A stretch of DNA of 64,000 bases from Candidatus Amesbacteria bacterium GW2011_GWC2_45_19 (GCA_001001555.1 LCKS01000002.1:7074-71073); one strand, 5' to 3'. Shown: positions 13,192-56,469, counted from the stretch's first letter. Notes: generated from the letters alone by a model not told the origin. Translations and numbers: made by a program.

Positions 13192-13258
13192 TAATTATTT
13201 GTTAAATACAACGGTCGTGAAATTTGACAAATAATAATGAAAAGAAAATAATAAATCA

Positions 13259-13804
13259 GTGAATAAAAGAAAAGTAACTGTTGGAGGAATTCTAAAGTTG
13301 ATAAACGACGCTGGAGAAATCTTTTTACCTCTGACCAGGAAAGGAACATATAGACAATTGTACTCACCTCGGATCTTGAGTCTGGAGGATTATTTTCCAT
13401 CTGAAATAAAAAGAGTGGCCAGCAGATTAATCCGTAAGGGACATGTGCAAAAAGAAGAAACTTCCGATGGTTGGATAATAAAAATTACTAATAAAGGAAA
13501 GAACGAGATATTAAAATTCAGACTGGAAGAATTTAAACCCAAAAAAGATAAATGGGACGGATTATGGCGACTGGTATTTTTTGACATAGAAGAGGTCAAT
13601 AGGAAGAAAAGAGACATGCTACGGAAATATTTAAAGAAACTGGGACTCAAACAAATGCAGGAAAGTGTATGGGTTGGCCCATTTGATGTAAGTTCTGAAG
13701 TCAAATACTTACGCGAGGTATTGGACGTTCCTCACGAGGTAAAAATTGGGGTGATGAAAGAGTTGGAAAACGCCGAAGATTTAAAAGGATGGTTTGAACT
13801 ATGA
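13259..13804 (+). CDS. hypothetical regulator-like protein with Cas2/PaaX-C-like ferredoxin-fold C-terminal domain
   Basis: WDGLWRLVFFDIEE...KYLKKLGLKQMQESVWVGPFD matches the VapD/Cas2/PaaX-C type fold pattern. Flanked by 45-bp direct repeats (see findings). Confidence 0.35.
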   Translation: MNKRKVTVGGILKLINDAGEIFLPLTRKGTYRQLYSPRILSLEDYFPSEIKRVASRLIRKGHVQKEETSDGWIIKITNKGKNEILKFRLEEFKPKKDKWDGLWRLVFFDIEEVNRKKRDMLRKYLKKLGLKQMQESVWVGPFDVSSEVKYLREVLDVPHEVKIGVMKELENAEDLKGWFEL

Positions 13805-13879
13805 TATTTGTTAAATTCAACGGTCGTGATGAATGACAAATATTATGTGAGATGGAGTTTTTGTAGTAAACTTAAAGTC

Positions 13880-15151
13880 ATGGATCTGATGGAAAAAATC
13901 GTCAGCCTGTGCAAGAGAAGGGGATTTGTATTTCCCGGAAGTGAAATTTATGGCGGGATGGCTAACTCTTGGGATTTTGGCCCGGTTGGCGCCCAACTCA
14001 AAAAAAATATCAAGGATCTGTGGTGGAAAACTTTTGTGGAAAGCCGGGATGACGTTGTGGGTTTGGATGCCACCATAATCATGAACCCCAAAGTTTGGGA
14101 AGCCTCGGGTCACATAGAAGGGTTTTCCGATCCATTAGTCGAATGTAAGTCTTGCCACAACCGCTTTCGGGCCGACCAAATTGACATTAAAGATGTCTGC
14201 TCCGATTGCGGTAAAAAAGACTGGAGTCCGGTAAAAAATTTCAATCTCATGTTAAAAACTTTCCTCGGCCCAGCAGAAGATTCCGCCCACGCAGCTTATC
14301 TGCGCCCCGAAACCGCCCAGGCCATGTTTGTGGATTTCAAAAATGTTCTTTCCTCTAACCCAAAAAAGTTGCCATTTGGTATAGCTCAAATGGGAAAAGC
14401 TTTCAGGAACGAAATTACTACGGGAAACTTTTTGTTTAGATTGCGCGAGTTTGAAATGATGGAGATTGAGTACTTCGTTCACGAAAAAGATTGGAAAGAA
14501 GCGTTTGAGATGTGGCGGAAAGAAATGTGGAATTGGTTTGAATTAATGGGTATCGATAAAACCAAAATTCACGAACACGAAATTCCTGACGGGGAAAGAG
14601 CGCATTATTCCCAAAGAACTATAGACTTTGAGTTTGAGTATCCCTTTGGACAAAAAGAACTATACGGCTTGGCTTATCGCACCGATTATGACTTGAAGAG
14701 GCAGCAAGAGTTTTCAGGGCAAGATTTATCATACGCAGGTATAATGCCCCATGTCATAGAACCAACTTGGGGAGTAGATAGAACATTTTTAGCCGTTATG
14801 CTTTCTGCCTATCATGAAGACGAAAAGAGAGTTATTCTTAAACTTCATCCCAAACTCGCTCCATATAAAGTTGCCGTTTTTCCGCTGGTGGCCAATAAGG
14901 AGAACATCGTTAAAAAAGCCCGGGAAGTTTACCAGTTACTGAAACCAGTTACAGTTACTACATGGGATGACCGCGGCAACATCGGCAAAAGATATTACGC
15001 CCAGGACGAAATCGGTACTCCCTGGTGTGTAACTATCGATTATCAGACTTTGAAAGATGATACTGTCACCGTGCGCGACCGGGACACCGCCCAACAAGTG
15101 CGCGTGGCAGTTTCTGAACTTGACAGTTATTTCCCAGAAAAGTTAAAGTGA
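13880..15151 (+). CDS. glyQS: glycine--tRNA ligase, dimeric alpha2 type
   Basis: GFVFPGSEIYGGMANSWDFGPVGAQLKKN..., class II aaRS motifs and C-terminal anticodon-binding domain. ORF opens at 13808; ATG 13880 or 13889 likely. Confidence 0.9.
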   Translation: MDLMEKIVSLCKRRGFVFPGSEIYGGMANSWDFGPVGAQLKKNIKDLWWKTFVESRDDVVGLDATIIMNPKVWEASGHIEGFSDPLVECKSCHNRFRADQIDIKDVCSDCGKKDWSPVKNFNLMLKTFLGPAEDSAHAAYLRPETAQAMFVDFKNVLSSNPKKLPFGIAQMGKAFRNEITTGNFLFRLREFEMMEIEYFVHEKDWKEAFEMWRKEMWNWFELMGIDKTKIHEHEIPDGERAHYSQRTIDFEFEYPFGQKELYGLAYRTDYDLKRQQEFSGQDLSYAGIMPHVIEPTWGVDRTFLAVMLSAYHEDEKRVILKLHPKLAPYKVAVFPLVANKENIVKKAREVYQLLKPVTVTTWDDRGNIGKRYYAQDEIGTPWCVTIDYQTLKDDTVTVRDRDTAQQVRVAVSELDSYFPEKLK

Positions 15152-31879: not shown

Positions 31880-34165
31880 TTAATTTGCAAATTGGTCTGC
31901 TCTTTGTTGATACACATCTTGTTTAACTAGCCGTAGCCCTTCTTTAATCTGTTGCCGTAAGTCCGCGGCCATGTCCGCCCACGGACCCCGACCCGTCTTG
32001 GCCACCAGCGCGTCAATGGTCCGGTACAGCCGATTCATCCGGGCGTCAAATTTGGCCGCCGTATTCACTTTGGTCTGGCCGATATCTGCCACATAGCTTT
32101 TAATCCGGGCCAAATCCTGCAGCAGAATTCTTCTGGCCGGCAATTTAAGGGCGCTGGCGCCAACCGCCGTCTTTAATGTTTCCAGCCTGGCCTGGGCGTT
32201 GTCCAGCGGGGTATCCCCCAAATTGGCCTGACTTAATTGCACTCCAAATTGATGTTGGTCTGTCTGTCCGCTGGCTACGCTGTCACTCACTTCCTGCCAG
32301 GCTTCGTCGTCGCCTTTGATCCGGCCGAAATACAGAGTGTAATTTCCTCCCCCGCCGGCGGGCGAGACGGTAACTTGATAATCGCCATCGGCCGGATTAC
32401 TAATGACCACAATTCCGTCTTCCGGCAAAAAAGTCCCCCCGGGTCCGCTGACTTGGAAATCAACCGGGGAGGCAGTAGTGACTATAATAGCACTGTCGTA
32501 GTTCGGCTGATTAACATCTTGACCGCTGGCCGGCAAGCCCAACATCTCCAGAATTTTCTTTTGGGAAATCTCTTTGGAAATAATTTCAGTATGATTTTTG
32601 CCAGATAGTTCATCGTTTACAGGTGCTCCGCTAATCTGACTGCTGGATAACAATACCGCCCCGTCTCCATTGTCATATTCTTTCTGGCCGGTAGGTTTGC
32701 CGTCCACCCATCTACCCGTCAATATATCAGCCAGGCTTCTAGGCTCGACCTGAATAAACTTTACTGTATTTCCCCAATTGCTGGATAAAGTCTGCAATTT
32801 AGCCAAAATACTTCCCAGTTGGGAATCTAAACCGGGAAGGAAATTGTTTGTCCAAGTTAGCCCCGCAATTGGCTTTATTGACCCATCCCGATTTTTCAAA
32901 AATTCATAGATTGGTAGGACATTTCTTAAAGCAGGAAATAAAGCTTGTACCTCGGCCACTTCCGTATCATATTGATCTCTGTTTACGCGCAACAGCAGTT
33001 TCATGGCCAGTTTTTGCCACCCCGTAAACCCTTGCGGGTTTGCTCCCTCCCACAAGTAAAAAGCTTCGCCCACTCCCCGGTGCGGACTGCCCACAGTTAA
33101 TAATTTATCAATCTTTTCGGGATTAGATTGGGCATAGGCGCGGGCCACCAGACCTCCCAGGCTATGCCCTACCAAATTAACTTGGCCAGAGGATATACGG
33201 TCGGAAATAAACTGGGCTAAATTATTTGCCGTGTCTGACGCATTTCGTCGCCAATCATATGCGTACACCCATAAATTTGTATTTTGGATATAACCGGCCG
33301 CCTCCAACGCCGAAATTAATCCGTTATAGACTTTCACATAGGGGGCAATTTTCCAATCCGTATCCGGTACATTTACTCCGTGCACTAACGCCTCATAATT
33401 CCAGCCAGCCCCCATCCCAGGAATTAAAATAATAGGAGTTAAAGGAGTAGGAGTGGGGGTGGGAGTGGGCACCGGGTCCAAACTCCTTACCACCACATTA
33501 TCAAACCAAACTTCAGAATCTGGATCAGTCCCCACACTGGCTTGAAAACCGATGGTACCGCCACCAAAGTAAGGAGGTGAGTCTGCTAATTCCCAAACTT
33601 GAATATCGTTAATGAATATCTTGATTACAATATTAGAAAATTCTATTCGAAAATGATATGTTTGGTTATCCTGAAAGGAATACGAGGATTTTTCTAACCT
33701 ATAATAACCGTCAACAACTTTTTGAAACCACATATCAGAACCATAAAATTTCAAATCATACCAATTCGAAGGGTTTAAATACTTAAAAATTATGTTTCTG
33801 TCGGCAATAACAGTATTTGTAAATTCCATATCAAAACTATAGGAGTATCCCATCCCTTCAGTAAAATTAAAATTATTAGGAATAAGCTCAGTCACACATC
33901 CGGGACCATCTATTTTAATACCCACTCTACCATTTTCCGCTTTCCAAGTAGTTGGATTACTTTGATATAAGCAAGGCAAACTTGGGGCTGACCATTGCAT
34001 ATTACGAGCGACCGTCCAGTCAGATATATCGTTATCATTAAAATTGTCTTGGAAGTAAATGATGCTTGCGTTGATACTCTTTGGAAAAACAAAGGCGAAA
34101 GAAATACTCACTAAAACGACAACCCCAACTCTGACCATCCTACTATACAACGACCAAACTTCCAC
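31880..34165 (-). CDS. secreted multidomain lipase/esterase (LamG/DUF1080-like N-domain, TP-linker, alpha/beta-hydrolase with GHSLGG, PPC-like C-domain)
   Basis: Signal/TM N-terminus; ConA-like domain ending FDNVVV; TPTPTPTP linker; nucleophile elbow VNLVGHSLGGLVARAY; C-terminal beta-rich then coiled-coil tail. Confidence 0.6.
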   Translation of the reverse strand: MEVWSLYSRMVRVGVVVLVSISFAFVFPKSINASIIYFQDNFNDNDISDWTVARNMQWSAPSLPCLYQSNPTTWKAENGRVGIKIDGPGCVTELIPNNFNFTEGMGYSYSFDMEFTNTVIADRNIIFKYLNPSNWYDLKFYGSDMWFQKVVDGYYRLEKSSYSFQDNQTYHFRIEFSNIVIKIFINDIQVWELADSPPYFGGGTIGFQASVGTDPDSEVWFDNVVVRSLDPVPTPTPTPTPLTPIILIPGMGAGWNYEALVHGVNVPDTDWKIAPYVKVYNGLISALEAAGYIQNTNLWVYAYDWRRNASDTANNLAQFISDRISSGQVNLVGHSLGGLVARAYAQSNPEKIDKLLTVGSPHRGVGEAFYLWEGANPQGFTGWQKLAMKLLLRVNRDQYDTEVAEVQALFPALRNVLPIYEFLKNRDGSIKPIAGLTWTNNFLPGLDSQLGSILAKLQTLSSNWGNTVKFIQVEPRSLADILTGRWVDGKPTGQKEYDNGDGAVLLSSSQISGAPVNDELSGKNHTEIISKEISQKKILEMLGLPASGQDVNQPNYDSAIIVTTASPVDFQVSGPGGTFLPEDGIVVISNPADGDYQVTVSPAGGGGNYTLYFGRIKGDDEAWQEVSDSVASGQTDQHQFGVQLSQANLGDTPLDNAQARLETLKTAVGASALKLPARRILLQDLARIKSYVADIGQTKVNTAAKFDARMNRLYRTIDALVAKTGRGPWADMAADLRQQIKEGLRLVKQDVYQQRADQFAN

Positions 34166-34203
34166 AACTGCACTATACCTTATAGGGCCTTACTCGTGTC
34201 AAG

Positions 34204-34971
34204 ATGGTAAAATTACGATTGATGGATAAACAATATAATGAGTTTCACAAAAAATCCAAGATTCAGAAAAAACCGATCAAGAGAAATAACTTTACGTACA
34301 GGCTAATCATTAGAGAAGTAGAAAAGATATTGCTTAAGATAAAGAGGAATAATGTCATAATTTTGGATTACGGATGTGGTATAGGAACTTTGGCTTTTTA
34401 CCTTGCTTCAAAAGGATACAATATTACCGGTGTTGACGTATCTCCCCTGTCAATCAGATTGTGTAATAAAAGTGCTAAAGAGATGAATCTAAGTGGTCTG
34501 GCTAAATTTAACTTAAATAAGGATTTTTTGAAGAAGTTAAAAAAAACAAGCGGTAAATTTGACTTAATAATTTGTTCCGAAGTAATTGAACACGTTCAAA
34601 ATGATATCAAGTTACTGAAAAAATTATCAGGAATTCTGAATAAAGGAGGATATTTTCTTTTGACAACTCCTAGCAAAAACGCCCCATTGTTTAAAATGGG
34701 ACTTGCTAAATTGTTTGACATAAGAGTGGGACATTTACGGCGATATACAGAAAAAGACCTGACCAAGAAAGTCGAAAAAGCAAGTTTCAAAATAATCAAA
34801 GTTATAAAGACCGAGGGAATTATTAGGAATTCATTATTTTTGTTCCCCATATTTGGGAATTTAGTCCGATTTATAAAAGGACCAATCTCAGATATAGTAA
34901 CTTTTGTTGATAAAATATCTTTAAAATTGTTTGGAGAATCGGATATTTATGTTGTATGTCAGAAGCCATGA
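34204..34971 (+). CDS. class I SAM-dependent methyltransferase
   Basis: ILDYGCGIGTLAFYLASKGYNITGVDVS motif I; AT-rich gene. Confidence 0.75.
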   Translation: MVKLRLMDKQYNEFHKKSKIQKKPIKRNNFTYRLIIREVEKILLKIKRNNVIILDYGCGIGTLAFYLASKGYNITGVDVSPLSIRLCNKSAKEMNLSGLAKFNLNKDFLKKLKKTSGKFDLIICSEVIEHVQNDIKLLKKLSGILNKGGYFLLTTPSKNAPLFKMGLAKLFDIRVGHLRRYTEKDLTKKVEKASFKIIKVIKTEGIIRNSLFLFPIFGNLVRFIKGPISDIVTFVDKISLKLFGESDIYVVCQKP

Positions 34972-35773
34972 AGGTATTGATGATGACCAGGTTGTATTGG
35001 CCCCATGTAGGTGGAGTAGAGAAGCATGTGGAGAAAATAACTGAAATTTTGAAAAAGAAGCACCAAATAACTATTGTTTGTGAAAAACACGATCCCAAAC
35101 TGCCAGATTATGAAAATGATAGGGGAGTGATAATTTACAGAATTGGGGGATCGGACAAATGGGCCATTTGGAAATGGTGGTTTAGGCATTTGAACCTCAT
35201 AAATGACGCAGATATTATTCACATTCACGACGTTTTCTTCTGGTTTTTACCATTTAGACTCCCCTACTGGTTCAAAAAAGTTTTTATCACTTTCCACGGC
35301 TGGGAAGGCATATACCCCCTGCCCCGGAAAAACATAATTGTTCGTAAATTCAGCGAATGGATGGCCAATGGCAATATCTGCGTAGGTGAATTTATCAAAA
35401 AATATTATGGCACCAAATCCGATTATGTCATCTATGGAGCGGCAGAAAAAATCAAATACCCAAAAGTAAAAAGGCAAGGGGCAATTTTTGTGGGCCATCC
35501 GGACGCGGATCAAGGGCTGGATTATTACTAAAATTGGATATATTCACCGACGATCCCGATGCCGGCAAATATTTTTATAAATACAAATACGCTTTTGTCT
35601 CCGGTTATTTATCTATTCTTGAAGCTATGGCTCAAAATACGCCGGTTTTTACCCATTATGACAATCCGCTAAAATACGACTATCTAAATATGACACCGTT
35701 TAAAGACAAAAATTTTAAAATACCCGGCTGGTTAGAAGTAGCCGATATTTACGAAAAACTATGGCAAAAATGA
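34956..35773 (+). pseudogene. disrupted GT4 glycosyltransferase (N-terminal Glyco_trans_4 fragment 34956-35531 plus frameshifted C-terminal fragment 35534-35773, middle missing)
   Basis: YWPHVGGVEKHV N-domain motif in the first ORF, SGYLSILEAMAQNTPVF C-domain motif in the second ORF in a different frame; combined 270 aa vs about 370 expected. Confidence 0.5.
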
Positions 35774-36738
35774 CCGAACGCACAAGGAGAGACCTTGTGC
35801 GCGTGACGGTGGTGGTTACGGTTTTGAATGAAGAAGCCACAATCAAGTTTCTTTTGGATGCTTTGATTAGACAAACCAGAAAGTCCGATGAAATTATTAT
35901 CGTCGACGGCGGGTCAACAGATCGCACCGTGGAAAAGATTAAGAAATATAAAGAGATTAAGTTACTAAGAAAATCTGGAAATAGGTCGGTAGGCAGAAAT
36001 TACGGCATGAGCCAGTCTAAGGGCAACATCATCGCCTTTACCGACGCTGGTTGCATCCCCGAACTAAATTGGCTCGCAGAACTAATTAAACCTTTTTATA
36101 AAAAACTCCCCTCTCCTGGCCAACGGCCCGAGCGAAGCGAGAATTTAGGAGAGGGGCAGGGGGTGAGGTACGGGAGAGTGGAGGTTGTTTCTGGCTACTA
36201 CAAAGGTCTTTCTCAAAATATTTTTGAGAAATGTTTGGTCCCTTATGTCTTGGTCATGCCGGATAAAATCCCGGCTGAATTTTCCCCTTCCACCCGCTCC
36301 ATGGCCATGCGCAAAGGAGTGGGACTCTTCGATGAAAAGCTAAGCCATAACGAAGACTATGCTTTTGCCGTGGCGTTGAGAAAAAAAGGCCTGGAATTTT
36401 ATTTCGCCCCCAAAGCAATGGTGGGCTGGATGCCGTGTAAAAATTTGCGCCAGGCGGCCTGGATGTGGTTGCGCTTTGCCATAGGCGACGCCCAGGCCGG
36501 AATTTTGCGCCCCAAAGTCAAACTCTTATTCCTGCGCTATTATGTATTTTTCTTCCTCTTTTTCCTTAATCACTTATTTATCTTAATCTCTTTTCCCTAC
36601 TTGCTTTGGGCCGTGGCTAAAAATTACCGCTACGTCAAAGATCTGCGGGCGTTTTTCTGGCTGCCCGTACTGCAGCTGACTACGGATATGTGCGTCATAT
36701 TTGGTACTATTATGGGAGTCTTGTCCCGATCTAAATGA
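35761..36738 (+). CDS. glycosyltransferase family 2 (carrying an in-frame palindromic-element insertion)
   Basis: VTVVVTVLNEEATIKFLLDAL...IIIVDGGSTDRT...FTDAGC GT2 motifs; 36106-36170 element encodes LPSPGQRPERSENLGEGQGVRYG. Confidence 0.75.
   Translation: MAKMTERTRRDLVRVTVVVTVLNEEATIKFLLDALIRQTRKSDEIIIVDGGSTDRTVEKIKKYKEIKLLRKSGNRSVGRNYGMSQSKGNIIAFTDAGCIPELNWLAELIKPFYKKLPSPGQRPERSENLGEGQGVRYGRVEVVSGYYKGLSQNIFEKCLVPYVLVMPDKIPAEFSPSTRSMAMRKGVGLFDEKLSHNEDYAFAVALRKKGLEFYFAPKAMVGWMPCKNLRQAAWMWLRFAIGDAQAGILRPKVKLLFLRYYVFFFLFFLNHLFILISFPYLLWAVAKNYRYVKDLRAFFWLPVLQLTTDMCVIFGTIMGVLSRSK
36106..36170. repeat. CCCTCTCC hairpin-family element inserted in frame in a GT2 gene
   Basis: CTCCCCTCTCCT ... AATTTAGGAGAGGGG ... 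GGGTGAGGTA shares the AATTTAGGAGAGGG and GGGTGAGGTA blocks with the 6855-6915 copy. Confidence 0.7.
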
Positions 36739-46915: not shown

Positions 46916-47554
46916 TCATGGTTTACAATCTGATCCTTTGACAAATCCGGCTGCCCGCGCTTCTTTTTCGTTGCAAAACCACCCATCGCCTAAATATAAC
47001 TGCACGACGGTATTACCGTATTGTCCGCAACCAGGGTAGCGGTAAAACTTGGTCTCTTTTCCCTGCTGACCAATATTACCTTTGATATTGCACTTGGGTT
47101 GAATAGGATTTACATCTTGGGTACAGCCGGCGCCAAATATTCCTAAGGTACCGGCTCGGGCTTTCTCTCCTGCCTTCAGTAATTCATCTGCGTTAGAATC
47201 CGTGCCTCTGGCAAAATACGCCCAACCCTGCTCCAACATCTTTTTATTGACATAAATATTTCCCGCATATACTTGGCTGACCAGGCGTTTAAATTTATCA
47301 TTAAACACCACTTTTATTTGCAGCCGCTTCCCCAAAATCAACTTCTCCAGAGCTTGTTTGGCTTCGGTGCCGCCGCAATATTTCAACTCCGGGGCATCTA
47401 CACCGGCCAGGCGGACAACCTGTTTTTCCTTGGTTTCAAAAGTGTCCCCGTCTATCACTCGGGCAACCTGATATGTGGTTTTCAAATACACCGCTGCGGC
47501 TAAAACCACCGTCCCTACCACCCCCGCCATTATCTTCCCTTTCATTTTTCCCAC
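46916..47554 (-). CDS. membrane-anchored thermonuclease (SNase family) with Cys-rich C-terminal domain
   Basis: N-terminal TM; VIDGDTF...VRLAGVDAPEL SNase motif; C-terminal CNIKGNI...YRYPGCGQY...WFCNEKEARAAGF domain. Confidence 0.75.
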   Translation of the reverse strand: MGKMKGKIMAGVVGTVVLAAAVYLKTTYQVARVIDGDTFETKEKQVVRLAGVDAPELKYCGGTEAKQALEKLILGKRLQIKVVFNDKFKRLVSQVYAGNIYVNKKMLEQGWAYFARGTDSNADELLKAGEKARAGTLGIFGAGCTQDVNPIQPKCNIKGNIGQQGKETKFYRYPGCGQYGNTVVQLYLGDGWFCNEKEARAAGFVKGSDCKP

Positions 47555-47577: not shown

Positions 47578-48276
47578 ATGTATACTATCAAACAGGGAAA
47601 TGCAAACTTTATGAATAAAGAAGTTACCAAGATAACTAAAATCGCGATCTTCCAAAACAGGAAAATCCGTAAAACCATTTATCAGAATGAATGGTGGTTT
47701 GTGATCGAGGATGTAGTTTTAGCACTAATTGATTCAAATGACTCAAAGCAATATATTCAGCGCATGAGACTTCGTGACCCTGAGCTTTCCAAAGGGTGGG
47801 TACAAATCGTACATACCCTTTTAATGGAAACCAGTGGTGGTAAGCAGAAAATGAATTGTGCTGATACTGAGGGTGTTTTTAGGATTATCCAATCAATCCC
47901 TTCTCCTAAAGCAGAACCTTTTAAAAGATGGTTGGCCAGAGTTGGATATGAAAGGGTACAGGAGATAGAAGATCCGGAGCTTGCCCAAAAAAGGGTCACA
48001 TCTGAATATAAGAAAATAAAAGGACTCAAGCGTCAAAACCTGCGTGACCATATGAATGATTTGGAGCTGCTATTTTCTCAGCTTGGTGAAGCAGCAACCA
48101 CAGAGATTACCAAAACAGATCATCCTCAAGGGTTTAAGAAAAATAAGCAAGTCTCAAAACGTGGAGGTAAAATTGCCGGAGACGCCAGATCCAATCTTGA
48201 ACGCGAAACTGGAAGAAAAGTAATTACCTCGCAAAATTATTTACTTAAGAGACAGAATAAGAAACTTTTAAAATGA
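47578..48276 (+). CDS. Bro-N domain protein (DinD/antirepressor-like)
   Basis: IAIFQNRKIRKTIYQNEWWFVIEDVVLAL resembles Bro-N; AT-rich gene. Confidence 0.45.
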   Translation: MYTIKQGNANFMNKEVTKITKIAIFQNRKIRKTIYQNEWWFVIEDVVLALIDSNDSKQYIQRMRLRDPELSKGWVQIVHTLLMETSGGKQKMNCADTEGVFRIIQSIPSPKAEPFKRWLARVGYERVQEIEDPELAQKRVTSEYKKIKGLKRQNLRDHMNDLELLFSQLGEAATTEITKTDHPQGFKKNKQVSKRGGKIAGDARSNLERETGRKVITSQNYLLKRQNKKLLK

Positions 48277-48977
48277 ACAAATTTTATTTAGAAATTTTAG
48301 AAGCAATTAAACAAAAGGCTAAAAAAACAAAGCAAACCTCGGAGACATCCGGATATTTGGGACATAGGCATTTCCATTATGGATTAAGTGTTCCCCAGAG
48401 AAGGGTAATAGCTAACGCATGGATTAAAAATAATAATGCTATTTCTCTAACAAAATTTATAACTCTGTTAGACCTTCTTTATCGAGGAGACTCTTACGAA
48501 GAAAAATCTATGGCCGGATTGCTTCTGGGATATTTACCAAAACTTAGAAGACAATTGAATCCTAAATTATTGGATAACTGGCTTAGTTACTTGGAAGGTT
48601 GGGCTGAAATAGATTCTACTTGTCAGTCCAATTTCACGGCAGATGAAATCCTACTTAAGTGGAATGATTGGGAAAAATTAATTAAGAGTTTTGCTGACAA
48701 TAAAAGCGTTAGTAAGAGAAGAGCGAGCTTAGTATTATTAACAGGAGTTGTTAATAACTCGAATGATAAAAGACTTATCGGTTTGGCTTTTGAAGTTATA
48801 GATAAACTAAAATCTGAGAGAGATATTTTAATTACAAAAGCCGTCTCTTGGCTTCTAAGAAATTTAATCAGACACAATAAAATCAGAGTTGAAAAGTATC
48901 TCGACGAAAATTTAGACTACTTACCCATTATAGCAATAAGAGAAACTAAAAATAAACTTAGAACTGGCAAAAAATAG
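48273..48977 (+). CDS. DNA alkylation repair protein (AlkD/AlkC-like HEAT-repeat glycosylase family)
   Basis: C-terminal KAVSWLLRNLIRHNKIRVEKYLDEN resembles the DNA_alkylation family signature; overlaps upstream gene by 4 nt. Confidence 0.5.
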   Translation: MNKFYLEILEAIKQKAKKTKQTSETSGYLGHRHFHYGLSVPQRRVIANAWIKNNNAISLTKFITLLDLLYRGDSYEEKSMAGLLLGYLPKLRRQLNPKLLDNWLSYLEGWAEIDSTCQSNFTADEILLKWNDWEKLIKSFADNKSVSKRRASLVLLTGVVNNSNDKRLIGLAFEVIDKLKSERDILITKAVSWLLRNLIRHNKIRVEKYLDENLDYLPIIAIRETKNKLRTGKK

Positions 48978-49244
48978 ATAAAAGATTCAATAATTCTATT
49001 ATTCTACTGGCGGGGTACTTTTAACGCTAAAATAATAAGATGATACAGTTTTATAGCACAGTTAAAAGTTAGTTCGACCCCCGTCAGGGTATAAGGTTAT
49101 GGGATTAAATTTTGGCAAACTTTAGAAACTTTCCGAAGCTAAAATCCACGAGTTCGATAAAATTTCTATGGAGCTAGTTTTTGAAAAAGTTCGCACTGAT
49201 TTTCGAGATTCTCCGTGATGCTGCTGGCTCCCGCCTTCGCTGCC

Positions 49245-49295
49245 AGCTTCGGCCGTGCAGGCCGGCTCGGCTGCGGCCTCGCCTCCGCTTATTTT
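49245..49295. repeat. GC-rich structured element A (GCTTCGGCCGTGCAGGCCGGCTCGG...) in AT-rich island
   Basis: CGGCC-loop-GGCCG hairpin; related copy at 53121-53185; sharp GC spike in a ~35% GC background. Confidence 0.55.
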
Positions 49296-49493
49296 TTGCG
49301 CCCGAGATTATGCTCGCTAACGCGAGCATATTTTACTAAAATTTCCATTGGAATGGAAACTTTTGGCTTTGCCCCACCCACCCGTGCGTGCCAACGTAAA
49401 ATACATTGATAAGACTCCCTCTCCAGCCTTACTATTGACAGGAATTATTTTTTATGTTAAATATAGTTAAATCTGACTTAACTAAAATATACA

Positions 49494-51239
49494 ATGAAAA
49501 AAGTTAACAATACTAAAATTTTATCGACTGCAGAGGCTAGTCGTTTATTGGGGCTAACCCGGCAAACGTTATATAAACTCGCGGAAAAAGGTGAACTACC
49601 GGGGAAAAAGATCGGCAGAAATTATAAGTTCTTCGAGCAAGATATTTTAAGCTATATTCGCCTCCATAAAAAGCTTCCGAAATATAAAGAGTGGGAATTA
49701 AGAGCAGATTTTGCTACTGAAGGGATTAAGAAAATGGCAAAACGTACTTTTCAAGGTCTTTCATCAAATATTGAAGAGCTAATTGCAAATTCATATGATG
49801 CTGATGCAACTTCCGTAAGGATTGTCATTAATAACGACAAAGGAACGTTGAGCATAATTGACAATGGTTCAGGGATGGATGAATCTGCGCTTGCTTCTTT
49901 TGTGAAGTATGGGAAGAGTGATAAGGACTCAGATTACCGTTCTCCAAAATTTGGACGGTCTCCGATTGGCGAATACGGAATGGGCGGAAAGCTGGCAATA
50001 ACTAATATTTCTAGACGTTGCAAGATAATTACAAGAAGAAACGGTTATGAGCACATATTTAACATGAATCGTGCAGACCTCGATAAGGCTAAGTATATAA
50101 GTGATGTCAAAAGTAGGGTGCTGACCAAAAAATGCAGTAAGAAATACCACGGTACTGAAATATACATGGAAGATTTGTTTACGAAAACTATCGACAGTGA
50201 AAGGTTGCAGGAGAGATTTTCTACAAAAATGCCATTAAGTCAGAATTTTCAAATCGTTATGGTCGTCATTCGAAATAATGAAAAAAAGGAACAGACAGTA
50301 AGCGAACCTATTTTTGAATATGAACGAAAATTCGACTTTAGTGACGATCTTCCAAAAATAGGGAATGTTAAGATGTCTATTTATTTCACTAAAGAGCCTA
50401 TAGCGGCTACAAAACAAGGTGTATGGACAAAGGTAAATGGGAGAATAGTTAACGAAAAAGCTGAGTGGTTTGATTTGTTTCGAGCAACCTCCGGTACGAG
50501 ATATAGATATAGGTTATTCGGGTATGGTGAGGCTGATGGTCTGAAAGACTATGTGACTTTTTCTAAAAACGATTTTATCGACTGTCCCGAATACAATGAG
50601 TATTGGGAATTTGGTCACAAAAATATCTTAAAGGTACAAAATACCCTTCTTCGTGATGACGAGAACATTAAAAAGGAGCAAGATAGAAACCTAGTGAAAG
50701 ATGTTGAGAAAGAAGTGAACGATATTGTCTCGAAATTAGATGACCCCGCCACATTAGGTGTTCTTGAGGCGAAAATAAAGAAGGAGTTTACGAAGGAAAA
50801 GGAAAGTGCTCCTGAAGCTCCTTATCCAAATATAGATGTTATTGAAAAAGAGGCAGAAAAAGTTGTTTCCGTAGTCAAAAGAGGAAAAGATAAAAGAGAA
50901 AGGCGAAACCAGTCCATAGCCCCTAGTGAAAGAGTGTCATACTCAGGTAGAAATTATGTAATAACACCAGTCGATCTTTCTGAAACAGGGGACATTGTCA
51001 AATTTACTAAAGAAATGAACTTAATAGAAATTAACGAGAAGCATCCCTTGTACGTTAAAGCATCTAGAAACAGCTCATTAGATGATTTAGTTAGAAGTCT
51101 CGCATTTACAGAAATTGCTTACGACTACAGCGAAGGGGACTTTGTTAGTTTTGACGCTGTATTTAATGAATTAGCTAGAATTGCGTCAAGGCGGGTTAAA
51201 TTAATTGGTATGGAAGATCTAACAGCTAGTAGCGGGTAA
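49494..51239 (+). CDS. HTH (excisionase/MerR-like) fused to GHKL/MORC-like ATPase (HATPase_c_3) protein
   Basis: N-terminal HTH (STAEASRLLGLTRQTLYKLAEKGELPG); Bergerat-fold boxes ELIANSYDADA (N-box), IIDNGSGMD (G1), GEYGMGGK (G2); 581 aa. Confidence 0.6.
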   Translation: MKKVNNTKILSTAEASRLLGLTRQTLYKLAEKGELPGKKIGRNYKFFEQDILSYIRLHKKLPKYKEWELRADFATEGIKKMAKRTFQGLSSNIEELIANSYDADATSVRIVINNDKGTLSIIDNGSGMDESALASFVKYGKSDKDSDYRSPKFGRSPIGEYGMGGKLAITNISRRCKIITRRNGYEHIFNMNRADLDKAKYISDVKSRVLTKKCSKKYHGTEIYMEDLFTKTIDSERLQERFSTKMPLSQNFQIVMVVIRNNEKKEQTVSEPIFEYERKFDFSDDLPKIGNVKMSIYFTKEPIAATKQGVWTKVNGRIVNEKAEWFDLFRATSGTRYRYRLFGYGEADGLKDYVTFSKNDFIDCPEYNEYWEFGHKNILKVQNTLLRDDENIKKEQDRNLVKDVEKEVNDIVSKLDDPATLGVLEAKIKKEFTKEKESAPEAPYPNIDVIEKEAEKVVSVVKRGKDKRERRNQSIAPSERVSYSGRNYVITPVDLSETGDIVKFTKEMNLIEINEKHPLYVKASRNSSLDDLVRSLAFTEIAYDYSEGDFVSFDAVFNELARIASRRVKLIGMEDLTASSG

Positions 51240-51297
51240 ATACCAGACAGTTATTAGTTATATTTTCGTAACAAAATAGAAACTAGTTAAAAAGATA

Positions 51298-52413
51298 ATG
51301 ATCAAAGGCATTTTTCCAAACGAAAAAATTTTGACAAGGGGCCGTCTTCATGATGACGATTCGATAGATGTACTTAACTTTCCAACTCGCGTACTAAACA
51401 CCTTAGTAATGCACGACTATGAGACCGTTGGACATTTTTATCGCGTGTCGATGGCTGATTTGGGAAGGATAAGAAATATTGGAACTAAGACATTAAAGTA
51501 CTTTGGAGAAGTCAAAGCAGCAATAAAAGAACATCGAAAAGAGCCTGATCTGCCGCCACTAGAAACCGCGAAGTCAAAGGAAGCAAAGCCTTCAAGTTTT
51601 GTGCCTTATTTGACAGAAACTGAAAAAGAAAGAATGAAGTTGGTTAAGAGACTCTATGACGAGTATGGCACTCTAGAAAAAGTGGGAAGCCTGCTGAGAC
51701 TGTCAAGAGAAAGAGTTAGACAAATATTAAATAAAGGTCAAAAATATGGCCTTTTCACTTACCAGTTAACCCGAGATAGAAAATTTGATGAAGTGCTAAA
51801 CAAGATAGATGGGGAACGGCTAAGGGTATTACTTAGTACTACCAAAAATCAATTTGATGTTTGTTCGAATTTGGGGATAGATATAAGTACTCTTCAAAGG
51901 TTGATTAAATATTATAACATTGATCTCGTGTCCTATAAACAGGATGCTAGATATAAGAGATACTTAGTAGAATACTCCGAGATGGTTCGCGTACTTGGAT
52001 ATCATCCATCTACCACCATTATGCAGCGCCGCAAGGAATGGAGGAAAATATGGGCGGGTATTGTTAGGCTGTGGGGAAGTTTTGATCGATTTAGAGCAGA
52101 GTTTGGTATCGAAAAACCTAAACACTCTATGCACCCTAACACCTTAAAAGCTTGGCAACGAGCAAAGGAAAGAAGAATGGCGCATAAAAAGGAAAAAGTC
52201 GAAAACGTATACAAAATCATCGCTGAGCATGGTCCTTTAACTTGCAAAAAAATTTCCTACCTGGCAGGGTATAGTGATCAAATTGTCTATCAATATGTAA
52301 AAGATATGGTTAAAAAAAATAAGATTAAAAAATTAGGCAAAGGAAATAGAATTAAGTACGGATTAAATATTCAAAAAAATTATATTAAGCAATCAAAAAA
52401 CTATGCACACTAA
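51298..52413 (+). CDS. DNA-binding protein with RNAP alpha-CTD-like HhH and sigma70-region-4-like HTH
   Basis: LNFPTRVLNTLVMHDYETVGHFYRVSMADLGRIRNIGTKTLKYF (alpha-CTD-like); LSRERVRQILNKG (sigma70 r4-like); 371 aa. Confidence 0.4.
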   Translation: MIKGIFPNEKILTRGRLHDDDSIDVLNFPTRVLNTLVMHDYETVGHFYRVSMADLGRIRNIGTKTLKYFGEVKAAIKEHRKEPDLPPLETAKSKEAKPSSFVPYLTETEKERMKLVKRLYDEYGTLEKVGSLLRLSRERVRQILNKGQKYGLFTYQLTRDRKFDEVLNKIDGERLRVLLSTTKNQFDVCSNLGIDISTLQRLIKYYNIDLVSYKQDARYKRYLVEYSEMVRVLGYHPSTTIMQRRKEWRKIWAGIVRLWGSFDRFRAEFGIEKPKHSMHPNTLKAWQRAKERRMAHKKEKVENVYKIIAEHGPLTCKKISYLAGYSDQIVYQYVKDMVKKNKIKKLGKGNRIKYGLNIQKNYIKQSKNYAH

Positions 52414-53059
52414 TGACGAAATTAAAGAAACTATTTTAAAATGTCTATATGAGCATGTTCAAAAATCTAAAGGACCTTCCGGTATTCCGATGGGGATACG
52501 AGATTTAACCTCGGCAGTCAAATCCAAAATTGACGTTAAGCAACAGGTAGTTAGTTCTAACCTACATTCATTAATAAAAAACGGGTTTGTGGATGAGAAG
52601 GAGGTTCAAAATCCTTACGCTGCCGCTAAGTTTAACAGCAAGCCCGCTGTTAAATATGAACTCTCGAGAGCCGGAATTAGTTATTTTGATCAAGGTTCAA
52701 AGTTTGATCTGGCAGATAGAAACACAGGTATAAACATTCAAATGTTAAACAGCGCTGTGGTTATCGGAAATCAAAACATAGTCAAGAATATTGTGAGGGA
52801 GGAATATAAAGAGGGTTACTTGAAACTTGAGGAACTTGGGAAAAGAGTCAACTTATCTTCTGATATAAAAAATGAAGACAAAGTGAATTTGCAAGCTGAC
52901 ATTGAAACCATTAAAAACCAACTTGCGAAAGTTTCTCCAAACCACAATATTGTAAAAGCAGCTTTAGCAAGCCTATCAGGATTAGCTGATATATCTCAGT
53001 TATCTTCTCATTATGAAAGCGTCAAGAATTGGATTCTTTCCATCTTGGGCTTTAGTTAA
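52403..53059 (+). CDS. hypothetical protein (possible wHTH N-terminus)
   Basis: 218-aa ORF overlapping upstream gene by 11 nt; no recognised motif. Confidence 0.35.
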   Translation: MHTNDEIKETILKCLYEHVQKSKGPSGIPMGIRDLTSAVKSKIDVKQQVVSSNLHSLIKNGFVDEKEVQNPYAAAKFNSKPAVKYELSRAGISYFDQGSKFDLADRNTGINIQMLNSAVVIGNQNIVKNIVREEYKEGYLKLEELGKRVNLSSDIKNEDKVNLQADIETIKNQLAKVSPNHNIVKAALASLSGLADISQLSSHYESVKNWILSILGFS

Positions 53060-53120
53060 AAATTTTTGCATTTTCTCGTTTGAACACAAGGGAAAACACA
53101 GTTTGAGCCGATGTTTGCGG

Positions 53121-53185
53121 AGGCTTCGGCCGTTAGGCCGAGCCGGAGCCTGGGTGCGAGGCCGCGAGGCAGCCGAGCTTGATCA
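53121..53185. repeat. GC-rich structured element B (GCTTCGGCCGTTAGGCCGAGCCGG...)
   Basis: Shares GCTTCGGCCGT-N-AGGCCG-N-CGG core with element A. Confidence 0.55.
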
Positions 53186-53279
53186 CAGGGAATTTTCCCG
53201 AAAATCAGTTCGAACTTTTTCAAAAATCAGCTCAAAAGTCCTAAATTTTGAGTTGGTAACGATTAAAAGGTAAGTAGTT

Positions 53280-54167
53280 TCAAGATATGTTTCTTGTAAT
53301 TGTTTTCATTTTAAACATTTTTGTATCTATCAAAAACTCATACCCCGTTAATTTTAGCCATAGGTTAATGTTTTCTGTCAGTTGATACATTGGTACACCC
53401 AGATGACTAACCAGACTCCGATTAATCTTATAGGTTTTAAGTGCTTCAGCCTCATGATATTTAGGAATGTCTGGAAAATCTAAAACTTGATATTTATCGT
53501 CTTTCACTCTCCTTAAGAGTAAAAACCTGTCAGGATAATTTTTGTTCTCCTTGTTAACCTCACTACCCCTAACTAACCTGTATTTATTTTTAACATCTTT
53601 ATCTTCAGAAGGGAGAAAGATATTTTCAATTTTCTGCACGTCACTCACATCTCTAAGTCTTTTCAATAATTCAATAACTGCAATGATTTGATCATTTTCA
53701 AATTTTTCTGTGATAAGGGGGTTTTTCAAAATATTTTCGAGGTTCGATTCGTACGCCTCCCAAGTTCTGAATATTTGAAATCCAAAAAAGGTATTTGTTT
53801 CCAATAATTTGTTTATATCTTTTAAGCTTATAGATAAAAATTTGGACACACTACTTTGGCTATAATCTAACTCTTCCAGTGGATAAAAGAATTTCATGAG
53901 TTGATATACTATTCCCAAAACCTCTCTATCAATCTGCATTTTTCCGTACTCAAATATTTCTTGATTTAGTTTTCTGTTGGAAACACTCTTTATCAGTTCA
54001 TAAGAAATTAGGATTGCCGTAATAGCAATTAACGAAGCAGAAATATTAATTAAAAGATCTCTAATGTTTCCATTAACATATTTGCTTAGGCAATATATGA
54101 AAATGCCTGTTAGAAAAGATACAAAATAGGGCAACATAGTATAGAAAAAGCTTTTTGGAAATTTCAT
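53280..54167 (-). CDS. hypothetical membrane protein (2 N-terminal TM + cytoplasmic domain)
   Basis: 295-aa ORF, AT-rich, no known motif. Confidence 0.4.
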   Translation of the reverse strand: MKFPKSFFYTMLPYFVSFLTGIFIYCLSKYVNGNIRDLLINISASLIAITAILISYELIKSVSNRKLNQEIFEYGKMQIDREVLGIVYQLMKFFYPLEELDYSQSSVSKFLSISLKDINKLLETNTFFGFQIFRTWEAYESNLENILKNPLITEKFENDQIIAVIELLKRLRDVSDVQKIENIFLPSEDKDVKNKYRLVRGSEVNKENKNYPDRFLLLRRVKDDKYQVLDFPDIPKYHEAEALKTYKINRSLVSHLGVPMYQLTENINLWLKLTGYEFLIDTKMFKMKTITRNIS

Positions 54168-54313
54168 ACCCTAATTATAAATCAAGTTGTGTTGGTGTTA
54201 TACTCGGATTACCGAATGACCTCTGTGGTGAAGGTATCTTACTTTTAGAGAACTGATGGCACGAAAGTGATCCATCTTAGCCACAGAGATCGCATACAAA
54301 TAGGTATCAAAAT

Positions 54314-55129
54314 ATGAACGGGAATGATAAAGCATTGGTAACGCAGAGGATTGGTCAGTTAAAAAAATCGGCTGGAGAGTTAGCTGAGAATGTCACAGTA
54401 AATAATAAAAAAGAGTTTGTAAGTGTGGTGGGTTTATTACTTCACAACCTTGCCTCAGTCGTCGTTCCTGGATATGCCGTTGGTGCGGGGACTATAAAAG
54501 ATTATTATGATCAAAAGGTTAATAAGAAAAGACAACAAGAGATTGATTCTCTCCTGGGCAATTTAAATAGACGTTTGTCTTCAGTTGAGATAAAGCAAGA
54601 AGCGGTCGATTATTTTGAAAACACAATTGTGTTTCAGCTCGAAGAAATAACTCGGAAATTATTAACAAATCCCGGCAGAGGCTTTGGTGAAGTAATAGCT
54701 GAATTTGTCGCTAGCGCATTAGAAAACATGGATCTTCACCCCAAAACTAAAGATCTTGTACTATCTACGCTCCTAAGCTTGGACAGCGTAGATCTTTTGG
54801 TGCTTAAAACTATGGACAAGCATTTTCTTTCAAATTTACCTCAAAATGGAGGAAATGGGGCTAGGGGCGTAACCAGAGATTCTATTTGTACCTTACTTAA
54901 GGACCGCAATATGGACGAAGCTGTTATTGATCGATCTCTCCAGCGACTACAGTCAGAATCACTTATTCAACCCATGAAAGTTAGTGCTCCCGCTATTACT
55001 GAAGCTCCGACTGCGGATGAGTTGTATAAAGGAAAACGACCTGACCAATTCGATGCTCCCGGAGGATTTATTAACACAGGTTTCGGTAGAATATTTATTA
55101 ATTTTCTTAAACTGAATGACGACAAATGA
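54314..55129 (+). CDS. hypothetical protein
   Basis: 271-aa ORF, 4-nt ATGA overlap with next gene (translational coupling). Confidence 0.4.
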   Translation: MNGNDKALVTQRIGQLKKSAGELAENVTVNNKKEFVSVVGLLLHNLASVVVPGYAVGAGTIKDYYDQKVNKKRQQEIDSLLGNLNRRLSSVEIKQEAVDYFENTIVFQLEEITRKLLTNPGRGFGEVIAEFVASALENMDLHPKTKDLVLSTLLSLDSVDLLVLKTMDKHFLSNLPQNGGNGARGVTRDSICTLLKDRNMDEAVIDRSLQRLQSESLIQPMKVSAPAITEAPTADELYKGKRPDQFDAPGGFINTGFGRIFINFLKLNDDK

Positions 55130-55950
55130 ATATCAAAAATGATATTGATGTAATAATTCAGAACCTTAAATCATCGTTAGATTCAACTTCTGAGTCAAAA
55201 AAGCAATTGAGCGGATACACAATTCAGCTAGGGAAACAAGAAGAGCAAATTGAATCGGCAATTAACTTATGGGAAGAAATGAAAGGACAGAATGTCACGC
55301 CTCCTCAACCAATCACCGCCTCTGGAGTTGCACTAACTTATACTCTCCAACAATCATCACAAGATTTAAAGACATACGTCTCGAATCAAAGTTGGACAAA
55401 TCAGCTACAAGCTTTGGGGACAACTGCTCTAACAATAAATTCTGTTGCTGCTTCTGGAGCCTCGCTCTCATACCCACCAGGATATCGTTCGCAAGCCCTT
55501 GTTCAAGTAAATCTAATTGAAGAGAGGTATAGTCAAAGATCTGCGATCTCGCAGAAACTTTATGCAATTGATCAGTCATTAGGCCAAGAGTATGATAACG
55601 CTTGGCAAACATTACATCAGGCCACTCAAGATCCTACCCGTTCACCAATGTTTCTAATGAGGGAGGTGGAACGCAGATTGCTTGATTATTTTGCTCCAGA
55701 GATCGAACTTAGAAAGTATCATTCATTAGTTCCTAGCGACAAAATAACAGGCAGGCATAAAGTAGATTACTTGAAATCAATAATCAAACCATCTGCACAA
55801 ACCGCTTTTCTTGCCCAAGAACAGGCGTTAAATAACATTTATGCTTTATTGAGTAAGGCACATTCACCAGGCCAATTAGACATCGAGAAAACTAAAGCAT
55901 TTTTATACCAAGCTGATGCTCTGATTCAATTACTATTAGATTCTTTTTAG
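55126..55950 (+). CDS. hypothetical protein
   Basis: 274-aa ORF coupled to upstream ORF. Confidence 0.4.
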   Translation: MNIKNDIDVIIQNLKSSLDSTSESKKQLSGYTIQLGKQEEQIESAINLWEEMKGQNVTPPQPITASGVALTYTLQQSSQDLKTYVSNQSWTNQLQALGTTALTINSVAASGASLSYPPGYRSQALVQVNLIEERYSQRSAISQKLYAIDQSLGQEYDNAWQTLHQATQDPTRSPMFLMREVERRLLDYFAPEIELRKYHSLVPSDKITGRHKVDYLKSIIKPSAQTAFLAQEQALNNIYALLSKAHSPGQLDIEKTKAFLYQADALIQLLLDSF

Positions 55951-56065: not shown

Positions 56066-56139
56066 TGGAGCGGGATACGGGAATCGAACCCGCTTCTTCT
56101 GCTTGGGAAGCAGATATACTACCGGTGTACTAATCCCGC
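56066..56139 (-). tRNA. tRNA-Gly (anticodon CCC), CCA encoded
   Basis: Reverse-complement fold: acceptor GCGGGAT/ATCCCGC, D-arm GTAC-ACCGGTA-GTAT, anticodon stem TCTGC/GCAGA loop TTCCCAA, T-arm GCGGG-TTCGATT-CCCGT. Confidence 0.8.
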
Positions 56140-56379
56140 ATTTAGTAGTTTTTTCAAAGCCTCGCCACCTTTGTAGGATTTTATCATCTTTTCTCTGGCT
56201 AAAGCTTCACTATATGTCTCATACTGCTCAGAATAAATTAATTTCCAATTTCCTTTAGCATAACGAGTTGAAGTAGTTTTTCCCCGATTGTGTTCAGCCA
56301 GTCGTTTTTCCAAGTCAGAAGTACAACCGATATATCTCCGGTTTGAAAGTATATTTTGGATAATATAGGTCCAAAACAT
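56119..56379 (-). CDS. small GIY-YIG nuclease (stand-alone catalytic domain)
   Basis: MFWTYIIQNILSNRRYIGCTSDLEKRLAEHNRG...KGNWKLIY...E motif set of GIY-YIG domain. ORF extends to 56412 through a hairpin; 3' end overlaps tRNA-Gly by 21 nt. Confidence 0.7.
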   Translation of the reverse strand: MFWTYIIQNILSNRRYIGCTSDLEKRLAEHNRGKTTSTRYAKGNWKLIYSEQYETYSEALAREKMIKSYKGGEALKKLLNAGLVHR

Positions 56380-56409
56380 CTGAACCCCCTTCTCCCCGCC
56401 TTGGCGGGG

Positions 56410-56434
56410 CATACTACCGGTGTACTAATCCCGC
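56410..56434. repeat. 25-bp perfect direct repeat of the tRNA-Gly 5' portion (other copy 56116-56140)
   Basis: ATACTACCGGTGTACTAATCCCGCA occurs twice, bracketing the GIY-YIG ORF. Confidence 0.9.
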
Positions 56435-56469
56435 ACTTCGACTCCGCTCAGTGTAAACTATTTTACAAC

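Follow-up and report, generated by a model that had tools for sequence, protein, structure and literature searches.

The genome of Candidatus Amesbacteria bacterium GW2011_GWC2_45_19, a member of the Candidate Phyla Radiation (CPR; Patescibacteria), contains a strictly linked pair of genes that encodes a MORC-type ATPase and a DNA-binding partner and is preceded by a phased array of GTTAA repeats. We analyzed the pair in a stretch of 64,000 nucleotides, designated the window; coordinates are positions in the window unless a homologous locus (L001, L003, and so on) is named. The first gene, ORF1 (open reading frame 1; 49494-51239, plus strand), encodes a protein of 581 amino acids and the second, ORF2 (51298-52413, plus strand), a protein of 371 amino acids. 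We read the pair as a nuclease-free module of genetic conflict or defense, autoregulated, mobile, and sometimes coupled to a co-transcribed effector, and assign this reading a probability of roughly 0.45. An original prediction, made from the sequence of the window alone, had proposed a three-gene module that also includes ORF3 (52403-53059, plus strand, 218 amino acids) and is bracketed by two GC-rich hairpin elements. The three ORFs have exactly the lengths and coordinates predicted, and ORF3 overlaps ORF2 by 11 nt; the conserved core comprises only the first two genes, and ORF3 is a lineage-specific accessory or cargo gene that occupies the third position outside this core.

Conservation of gene order defines the pair. 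In each of the 36 fetched loci that reach far enough (approximately 24 of them non-redundant), the gene immediately after ORF1 is a homolog of ORF2, with intergenic gaps that range from -35 to +58 bp. ORF2 homologs that were found independently reside only on contigs with an ORF1-type gene. The co-occurrence expected by the original prediction thus holds for ORF1 and ORF2 in every informative locus and fails for ORF3, which has a positional homolog (83% identity) in just one of the ~24 non-redundant loci, L008. ORF1 has about 100 close relatives that share 46-99% identity over the full length, and an exhaustive profile search with ORF2 recovered 149 family representatives at E <= 1e-30. Seven loci, in at least five phyla and with 52-78% identity, were found in a scan of 185,579 species-representative genomes: a metagenome-assembled genome from the Gammaproteobacteria (L009), Omnitrophota, Peregrinibacteria, Levybacteria, Roizmanbacteria, Eubacteriales (L014), and an unclassified bacterium. 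A scan of metagenomes revealed 31 loci.

ORF1 begins with an HTH (helix-turn-helix) domain of the Xis/BldC type at residues ~10-56 (Pfam HTH_17, residues 10-56, 6.9e-12), which is followed by a MORC-type GHKL ATPase and its S5-fold transducer (~65-360; Pfam HATPase_c_3, residues 93-221, 1.7e-20). A long helical hairpin (365-436) leads to a conserved basic linker, KRGKDKRERRNQS, modeled with low pLDDT (predicted local distance difference test) scores, and to a conserved beta+alpha domain (485-568). The original prediction of an excisionase-type HTH fused to a Bergerat-fold ATPase is therefore borne out. ATP-binding motifs I-IV are intact, with E94/E95/N99/D102/D104, D123xGxG127, and G159EYGxGGK166 invariant in a family alignment of 22 members, and the ATPase is apparently catalytically competent. 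Structural matches of the HTH include the BldC-DNA complex, RdfS, Pukovnik Xis, and the GIsul2 excisionase; the domain also matches TIGR01764 ("excise", 4e-10) and PHROG excisionases. The C-terminal beta+alpha domain weakly resembles mini-zincins, although HExxH is absent from every family member examined.

ORF1 is best classed as an ATPase of the MORC/paraMORC type, an assignment that names no particular paraMORC family. ParaMORCs are classically linked to restriction-modification (R-M) systems, in which methylases, endonucleases, and superfamily II (SFII) helicases are their neighbors (Iyer, Abhiman & Aravind 2008, PMC2292703). Related GHKL proteins include the BbrUII/HgiDII type II enzymes and the paraMORC3/Shedu type I-D protein VcSduA (PMC12137116). 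ORF1 shares with prokaryotic MORC/paraMORC proteins the intact GHKL motifs, the S5-type transducer, and a sporadic, laterally transferred distribution. Unlike the genes of paraMORC R-M systems, the pair is neither fused nor linked to a nuclease, methylase, or SFII helicase; neither a methylase nor a nuclease is linked to it in any of the ~24 non-redundant loci. It differs further in the Xis-type HTH and distinct conserved C-terminal region of ORF1, in the obligate partner with sigma-4-like and winged-helix domains, and in the phased-repeat operator. Distant relatives of ORF1 (25-34% identity) that lack the HTH lie in operons with a methylase and an MjaV-type restriction endonuclease (L050). 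The best reading of these relationships is that the family descends from R-M-associated paraMORC ATPases with loss of the methylase and nuclease.

The original prediction did not recognize the combination as a described system, and the architecture is indeed missing from PADLOC, NCBIfam, PHROGs, and the literature searched. The pair falls outside MADS: the match of ORF1 to NF047737 (the MADS MAD1 HTH) reaches 32 bits where the cutoff is 80 and is confined to the HTH, and the pair has no MADS operon around it in the window. The ORF1-ORF2 operon is new to the catalogues and is best classed as a variant within the MORC/paraMORC conflict ATPases.

The partner protein is built from DNA-binding domains. 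Pfam recognizes RNA_pol_A_CTD at residues 20-67 of ORF2 (1.2e-8, above the Pfam cutoff), Sigma70_r4 at residues 108-147 (3.3e-6), and, weakly, a C-terminal winged helix. These matches agree with the predicted union of a helix-hairpin-helix (HhH) like that in the C-terminal domain of RNA polymerase's alpha subunit (alpha-CTD) and a helix like that of sigma70 region 4, except that the former is not family-wide. The protein begins with an HhH of the alpha-CTD type (residues 20-80), which varies within the family. An HTH resembling sigma70 region 4 (107-149) comes next, then a helical core (158-270) that is conserved and marked by LG(H/Y)HP(S/T)TT..W..W..I.R.WGS..FR.EFGI, and finally a C-terminal winged helix (312-357). 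Its predicted structure is all-helical (pLDDT 82.8), with no enzymatic fold among its structure matches; the other fold matches are winged-helix DNA binders. The alignment of residues 107-149 to primary sigma factors spans all of region 4 (4.1-4.2), and the recognition helix, RERxRQ, is the same as that of E. coli sigma70 region 4.2 and invariant across the ORF2 family. In sigma-4/-35 complexes, these R-E-R-x-R-Q residues are the ones that contact the -35 element. ORF2 resembles RNA polymerase in both its sigma70 region 4 helix and its alpha-CTD-like HhH. Because only Sigma70_r4 was detected in ORF2, with neither sigma region 2 or 3 nor the alpha N-terminal domain, the protein qualifies neither as a sigma factor nor as an alpha subunit. 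BLASTP produced no alignment between the ORF2 N terminus and the E. coli alpha-CTD; in a gapless alignment made by eye, R, N, G, and K of ORF2 presumably fall at alpha R265, N268, G296, and K298.

The sigma-4-like HTH, the helical core, and the C-terminal winged helix are conserved across the ORF2 family, and the alpha-CTD-like domain is present in some members only. Family members range from 264 to 553 amino acids owing to a hypervariable N terminus. ORF2 diverges far more rapidly than ORF1, with identities of 30-45% vs 58-69% when both are compared within the same loci. ORF2 homologs of 551 amino acids in L011 (5338-6993) and L027 (5664-7319) carry extra tandem winged-helix modules at the C terminus, and other members have differing N-terminal HTH-like extensions. 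ORF2 is thus a protein that accretes DNA-binding domains. We considered whether its "HP(S/T)TT...WGS...F" segment is a homing-endonuclease-associated repeat and rejected this assignment, as Pfam yielded nothing at a threshold as loose as E <= 1, and a low-complexity artefact accounts for the 40-repeat hit P0295.

The cis element of the operon overlaps its promoter. A consensus match predicts the promoter at 49435-49463 (plus strand), with a -35 element TTGACA (49435-49440), a 14-nt spacer, and an extended -10 element TGT-TAAATA (49455-49463). TTGACA, followed 14 nt later by TGTTAA (extended -10), is found upstream of ORF1 in most loci. An operator-like array in the window (49456-49481, plus strand) consists of GTTAA at 49456-49460 and 49466-49470 and a degenerate CTTAA at 49477-49481, and thereby overlaps the -10 element and early leader. 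Further GTTAA(A/T) units occur at 10-bp intervals, in some loci also upstream of the -35 element. The 27 ORF1 upstream regions contain 61 copies of GTTAA, which corresponds to 15.1/kb vs 1.3/kb elsewhere, and 24 of 39 successive spacings are 10-11 bp. By comparison, 2000 composition-matched resamples averaged 12.5 copies of GTTAA (no more than 27 in any) and 0.10 phased pairs (no more than 2), and 98 other intergenic regions contained no phased pair. Throughout the ~470 kb examined, arrays of at least three GTTAA units are located only upstream of ORF1 and always on the ORF1 strand. The phased GTTAA array, which does not figure in the original prediction, is a family-wide cis feature of the operon and its defining cis element. 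The exception to this rule is a locus from the Peregrinibacteria (L027, 3760-3900, equivalent to L042) that lacks both the array and TTGACA and has CCCTATTTCCCTATTTCCCC-AAAATAGGAAAATAGG; seven GTTAA units are present in L030, whose ORF1 N terminus is nearly identical to that of L027.

Variation within the family hints at the protein that reads the repeats. In the most diverged subclade (L014, L034, and L035), the repeat becomes G(A/T)TAAA and the recognition helix of ORF1, otherwise (T/S)RQTLYKL, reads S(R/K)PTLYKL; the sigma-4 helix of ORF2 is unchanged. This co-variation is suggestive of recognition of the GTTAA repeats by the ORF1 HTH. BldC, to which this HTH is structurally most similar, binds direct repeats as cooperative head-to-tail multimers (PMC5859096), and ORF1 resembles BldC and lambda-type Xis/RDF (recombination directionality factor) proteins (PMC5859096, PMC11963761) in both its HTH fold and its phased direct-repeat cis element. 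Those proteins are stand-alone polypeptides of ~60-70 amino acids, whereas the HTH of ORF1 is fused to an ATPase of ~520 amino acids and its binding is predicted.

The gene that follows the pair is variable. In approximately half of the loci, an unrelated co-directional gene occupies the third position, separated from the pair by -11 to about +140 bp. The products include DUF3800 (L016), NYN (L034), FRG, and Trypsin_2 (twice) proteins, a protein with a weak DUF5677 match, small membrane proteins, ORF3-like proteins, and unknowns. The third position is a swap site for effector-like cargo. ORF3 itself has no Pfam match. The 23 members of its family occur without ORF1 or ORF2, in type I R-M operons or beside a serine recombinase; this presence in R-M operons elsewhere identifies ORF3 as swappable cargo and, together with its rarity beside the pair, removes it from the three-gene module of the original prediction. 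In L047 (1653-9575), the operon encodes HsdM with a MerR/HTH_17 N terminus, a ThsB-type TIR protein, HsdS, a protein of 201 amino acids, an ORF3-like protein, and HsdR; in L049 (4536-7017), the ORF3-family gene adjoins genes for a serine recombinase and HsdM. These settings suggest that ORF3 is an accessory factor of R-M or defense operons. Its match to PADLOC PDC-M14B is weak and partial (3.8e-6), covering only the C-terminal ~105 residues, and PDC-M14A was not matched among the ORF3 neighbors, which leaves ORF3 outside PDC-M14.

We favor a role in conflict because of the descent of the pair from R-M paraMORCs, its lack of a nuclease or methylase, its behavior as a mobile accessory, and the arms-race-like evolution of the partner. 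We also infer that ORF1 binds the repeats and clamps DNA, that ORF2 confers specificity, and that the pair functions in defense. According to the model we propose, the ORF1 HTH would bind the phased GTTAA repeats over its own -10 element and leader in a head-to-tail manner, as BldC and Xis do on their sites. Such an array would bring multiple ATPase modules together along a single DNA face, and it would repress the operon. Once dimerized in an ATP-driven step, the GHKL heads would clamp the DNA, as they do in MutL and in the eukaryotic MORC proteins (PMC12216690); MORC2 is an ATP-dependent clamp that compacts DNA (PMC12216690). ORF2, with its rapid evolution and variable N terminus, would supply target or DNA specificity, and the pair would bind and silence particular (foreign) DNA without cleaving it. 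Where the third position holds an exchangeable effector-like gene, as it does in roughly half of the loci, that gene would be co-transcribed with the pair; in the window it is ORF3.

It is tempting to speculate further that the pair constitutes a bacterial counterpart of eukaryotic MORC silencing, a nuclease-free system of immunity or genome control in which a clamp nucleated on the phased repeats by an Xis-like HTH is steered by ORF2 as a mimic of the promoter-reading modules of RNA polymerase, namely sigma region 4 and, in some members, alpha-CTD; the clamp would load onto the promoter-like DNA of invaders and shut off transcription through occlusion or compaction instead of cleavage. Taken as a whole, we judge this extension distinctly unlikely. 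ORF1 differs from MORC2, MORC3, and SMCHD1 in that it lacks CW, chromo, and hinge domains and is only ~18-20% identical to them. Chromatin marks target the eukaryotic proteins, whereas HTH domains and a partner protein are predicted to do so here.

Several observations weigh against the conflict reading. No nuclease, methylase, toxin, or other recognizable effector was found in either core protein, the pair corresponds to no PADLOC system, and no principle of self/non-self discrimination is evident for it. The remaining half of the loci have a housekeeping gene or tRNA after the pair and no third gene, and most neighbors are housekeeping in nature (RuvB, ComM, and tRNAs); enrichment in defense islands is therefore not demonstrated. 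A PADLOC/Pfam census of 134 neighbor proteins likewise revealed no clear enrichment, although it consists of family counts only and is weak in either direction. No family member was found in phage, plasmid, and IMG/VR collections, so that mobility is deduced solely from phylogenetic patchiness and neighboring recombinases. The co-variation of operator and recognition helix is confined to one subclade and amounts effectively to a single evolutionary event. TTGACA is the ordinary -35 consensus and thus says nothing about binding by ORF2. Finally, the AF2 (AlphaFold2) models were built on shallow alignments of 22 and 17 sequences.

The main rival of the conflict reading holds that the pair is purely a transcriptional controller of an adjacent pathway, in the manner of CapK/CapS, CapH/CapP, or BrxR, with the ATPase sensing a signal and switching on the third gene. 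We consider this explanation unlikely, albeit well short of negligible. It would account for the variable gene with effector-like domains that lies close behind the conserved pair and in the same direction, for an operator array that lies over the promoter, and for a partner whose every domain binds DNA. There is also a precedent: CapK/CapS, which consists of an HTH-GHKL protein and a winged-HTH partner, regulates diverse immune operons (PMC13373217). Like CapK/CapS, ORF1 and ORF2 form a two-gene unit upstream of exchangeable genes and have sites in their own promoter region. However, half of the loci have no cargo to control, and the domain composition differs. CapK is a small SpoIIAB-type kinase with STAS and CapS is a STAS-wHTH protein, whereas STAS is absent from ORF1 and ORF2, both of which are much larger, and the GHKL domain of ORF1 is of the MORC/MutL type with S5.

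A second alternative, which we regard as improbable, is that the pair governs maintenance or excision of an integrative element, ORF1 combining an Xis/RDF-like HTH with an ATPase that remodels recombination or partition complexes. The match of HTH_17 to excisionase/RDF folds (RdfS, Pukovnik Xis, and GIsul2) is in keeping with such a function. So are the divergent large serine recombinase that lies 0.9-2.2 kb upstream in L005, L015, L020, and L021 and the location of the window copy in an island that adjoins a tRNA. Most loci, however, have no recombinase within 4 kb, and searches of plasmids, phages, and viral contigs recovered no family member. The window and its closest relatives, L001, L009, L016, and L008, carry the pair at the same chromosomal position, with tRNA-Thr(cgt) on one side and tRNA-Gly(ccc)/tRNA-Asp on the other, and only the content beside tRNA-Gly varies; the Amesbacteria lineage retains the pair in the tRNA-Thr/tRNA-Gly slot of diverged genomes without an integrase. 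Moreover, the phased repeats reside on the promoter of the operon itself rather than at the ends of an element.

The GC-rich elements of the original prediction raise a third alternative, namely that inverted repeats are the ends of a transposable or invertible cassette of ~4.07 kb that carries the three genes. The elements exist, as parts of a larger inverted repeat of ~125 nt. Its left arm (49166-49290, plus strand) contains an AT-rich core (49178-49205) and a GC-rich stretch (49215-49290); its right arm (53120-53238, minus strand) is an inverted partial copy situated between ORF3 and a convergent gene for a protein of 295 amino acids (53280-54167, minus strand). The core occurs twice in the window, with no copies expected by chance, and identity between the arms is 96% over the 28-nt AT-rich core, 86% over 43 nt, and ~70% over the GC-rich part. 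The arms bracket exactly three genes and many relatives lie on contigs of 3-4.3 kb, both of which would suit a cassette. Even so, we find this explanation highly improbable. No transposase or invertase lies inside or beside the arms and no recombinase is present between 47.5 and 56 kb; only 28 nt are well conserved between the arms; and inversion would move the promoter together with the genes and switch nothing. The left-arm core and the sequence downstream of it are common to the orthologous loci L016 and L008, both of which lack the right arm, and the left arm is therefore an ancestral leader and the right arm a window-specific copy. No flanking inverted repeats were found around the modules of L001, L003, L005, L008, L009, and L016. 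Nor do repeats mark the ends of the short contigs: L007 extends across the left arm and an upstream gene, and L008, in which tRNA-Gly directly follows ORF3, ends in a tRNA. We therefore rejected a discrete 4-kb element and, as a general feature, a role of the GC-rich elements as module boundaries, att sites, or terminal inverted repeats; neither role proposed for them by the original prediction is supported. Their interpretation as att-like boundaries is opposed by the inverted rather than direct orientation of the arms, by their absence from other loci, and by the lack of a nearby recombinase. Their interpretation as structured noncoding RNAs is unsupported, as Rfam returned no match at E <= 5 and the left arm folds no better than shuffled sequences (z -0.86); the minus strand of the right arm is marginal (z -2.6), with few homologous copies.

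More improbable still is the view that the pair belongs to a BbrUII/HgiDII-type or paraMORC-type restriction system that has degenerated or split, with its nuclease and methylase encoded at other genomic sites. In both NCBIfam and PADLOC, ORF1 best matches GHKL-containing type II restriction enzymes, its distant relatives reside in methylase-GHKL-MjaV operons, and paraMORCs are classically R-M-linked (PMC2292703). However, these matches are limited to the ATPase: NF050001 (BbrUII/HgiDII) reaches 82.9 bits, far short of its cutoff of 550, and its match is limited to residues 93-256, and PADLOC REase_II models match only at profile positions ~4-149 of 611-695. The invariable partner in the ~24 loci is a DNA-binding protein rather than a methylase or nuclease.

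The notion that ORF1 is a housekeeping MutL-like mismatch-repair protein with unrelated neighbors, prompted by its public name and weak MutL N-terminal matches, is effectively refuted by a TIGR00585 (mutL) score of 29 bits against a cutoff of 180 confined to residues ~90-135, the absence of the MutL C-terminal domain from ORF1, whose C-terminal half is unrelated, its presence in only 7 of 185,579 species genomes, its strict linkage to ORF2, and the structural ranking of MORC proteins above MutL. Proteins identical to ORF1 have been deposited from Candidatus Amesbacteria genomes as "mismatch repair protein" (GenBank, UniRef), a mis-annotation that is corrected here; those identical to ORF2 are named "hypothetical / sigma-70 region 4 domain-containing".

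Additional elements lie between the left arm and the promoter. A terminator scan identified a terminator-like hairpin, TATGCTCGC-TAAC-GCGAGCATA, with a T-rich tail (49309-49330, plus strand), which probably shields the operon from upstream transcription. The same place in L008 is occupied by a hairpin of other sequence, GCTGGC-TTC-GCCAG. The window hairpin is followed by the palindrome TTTCCATTGGAATGGAAA (49342-49359), which also differs in L008, and by a conserved leader box, ...TTTGCCCCACCCACCCGTGCGTGCCAACGTAAAATACATTGA... (49356-49420, plus strand), that lies upstream of the -35 element and is 89-90% identical and identically positioned in L016 and L008. GC-rich boxes also lie just upstream of the ORF1 promoter in the distant loci L015 (7600-7950), L021 (7600-7930), and L037 (7700-7900). 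The boxes of L015 and L021 have CCTTAG(A/C)CCCCACTCT in common, and that of L037, TTTTTTGCGCGCGATTTTACTA, resembles 49293-49340 of the window. A recurrent GC-rich leader element may accompany the operon.

The three ORFs are embedded in a low-GC island that extends from ~48 kb to tRNA-Gly(ccc) (56066-56139) and has a GC content of 33-40% vs 47-50% elsewhere. Two genes upstream of ORF1, a Bro-N domain protein (47578-48276) matches the PADLOC candidate single-gene defense family PDC-S13 (2.4e-77); its neighbors encode a staphylococcal-nuclease homolog (46916-47554) and a DNA-alkylation-repair protein (48273-48977). An extra block of genes at 53280-55950 is missing from the relatives, and the right arm sits at the junction with this block. 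Within it, an overlapping gene pair (54314-55950) encodes proteins of 271 and 274 amino acids that are at least 90% identical to Candidatus Collierbacteria proteins; such identity in a different CPR lineage marks this gene pair as a recently exchanged cassette and the island as a mosaic. The 274-amino acid protein weakly matches a pPIWI-associated nuclease (5.5e-5). Beyond the island, a minus-strand gene for a GIY-YIG nuclease of 80 amino acids (~56140-56380; Pfam GIY-YIG, 5.7e-17) lies between tRNA-Gly(ccc) and a 28-nt copy of the 5' part of the tRNA (56116-56143 and 56411-56438, 96% identical). The gene resembles a small homing-type insertion, one that gave rise to a duplicate of its tRNA target. 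Low-GC patches at 13000-14000 and 34000-36000 (33-39% GC, positive GC skew) are similar to the island of the three ORFs and may be additional horizontally acquired segments.

Prokaryotic MORC/paraMORC ATPases are thought to be ancestral to the eukaryotic MORC silencers, and to our knowledge they have so far been known only as accessories of nuclease-based restriction systems. The phased GTTAA repeats and the ORF1-ORF2 pair provide a tractable route to asking whether bacteria silence DNA with MORC-type clamps instead of cutting it. If the conflict reading is correct, the pair would add a defense or regulatory system from the CPR and other uncultivated phyla, which are poorly covered by defense catalogues.

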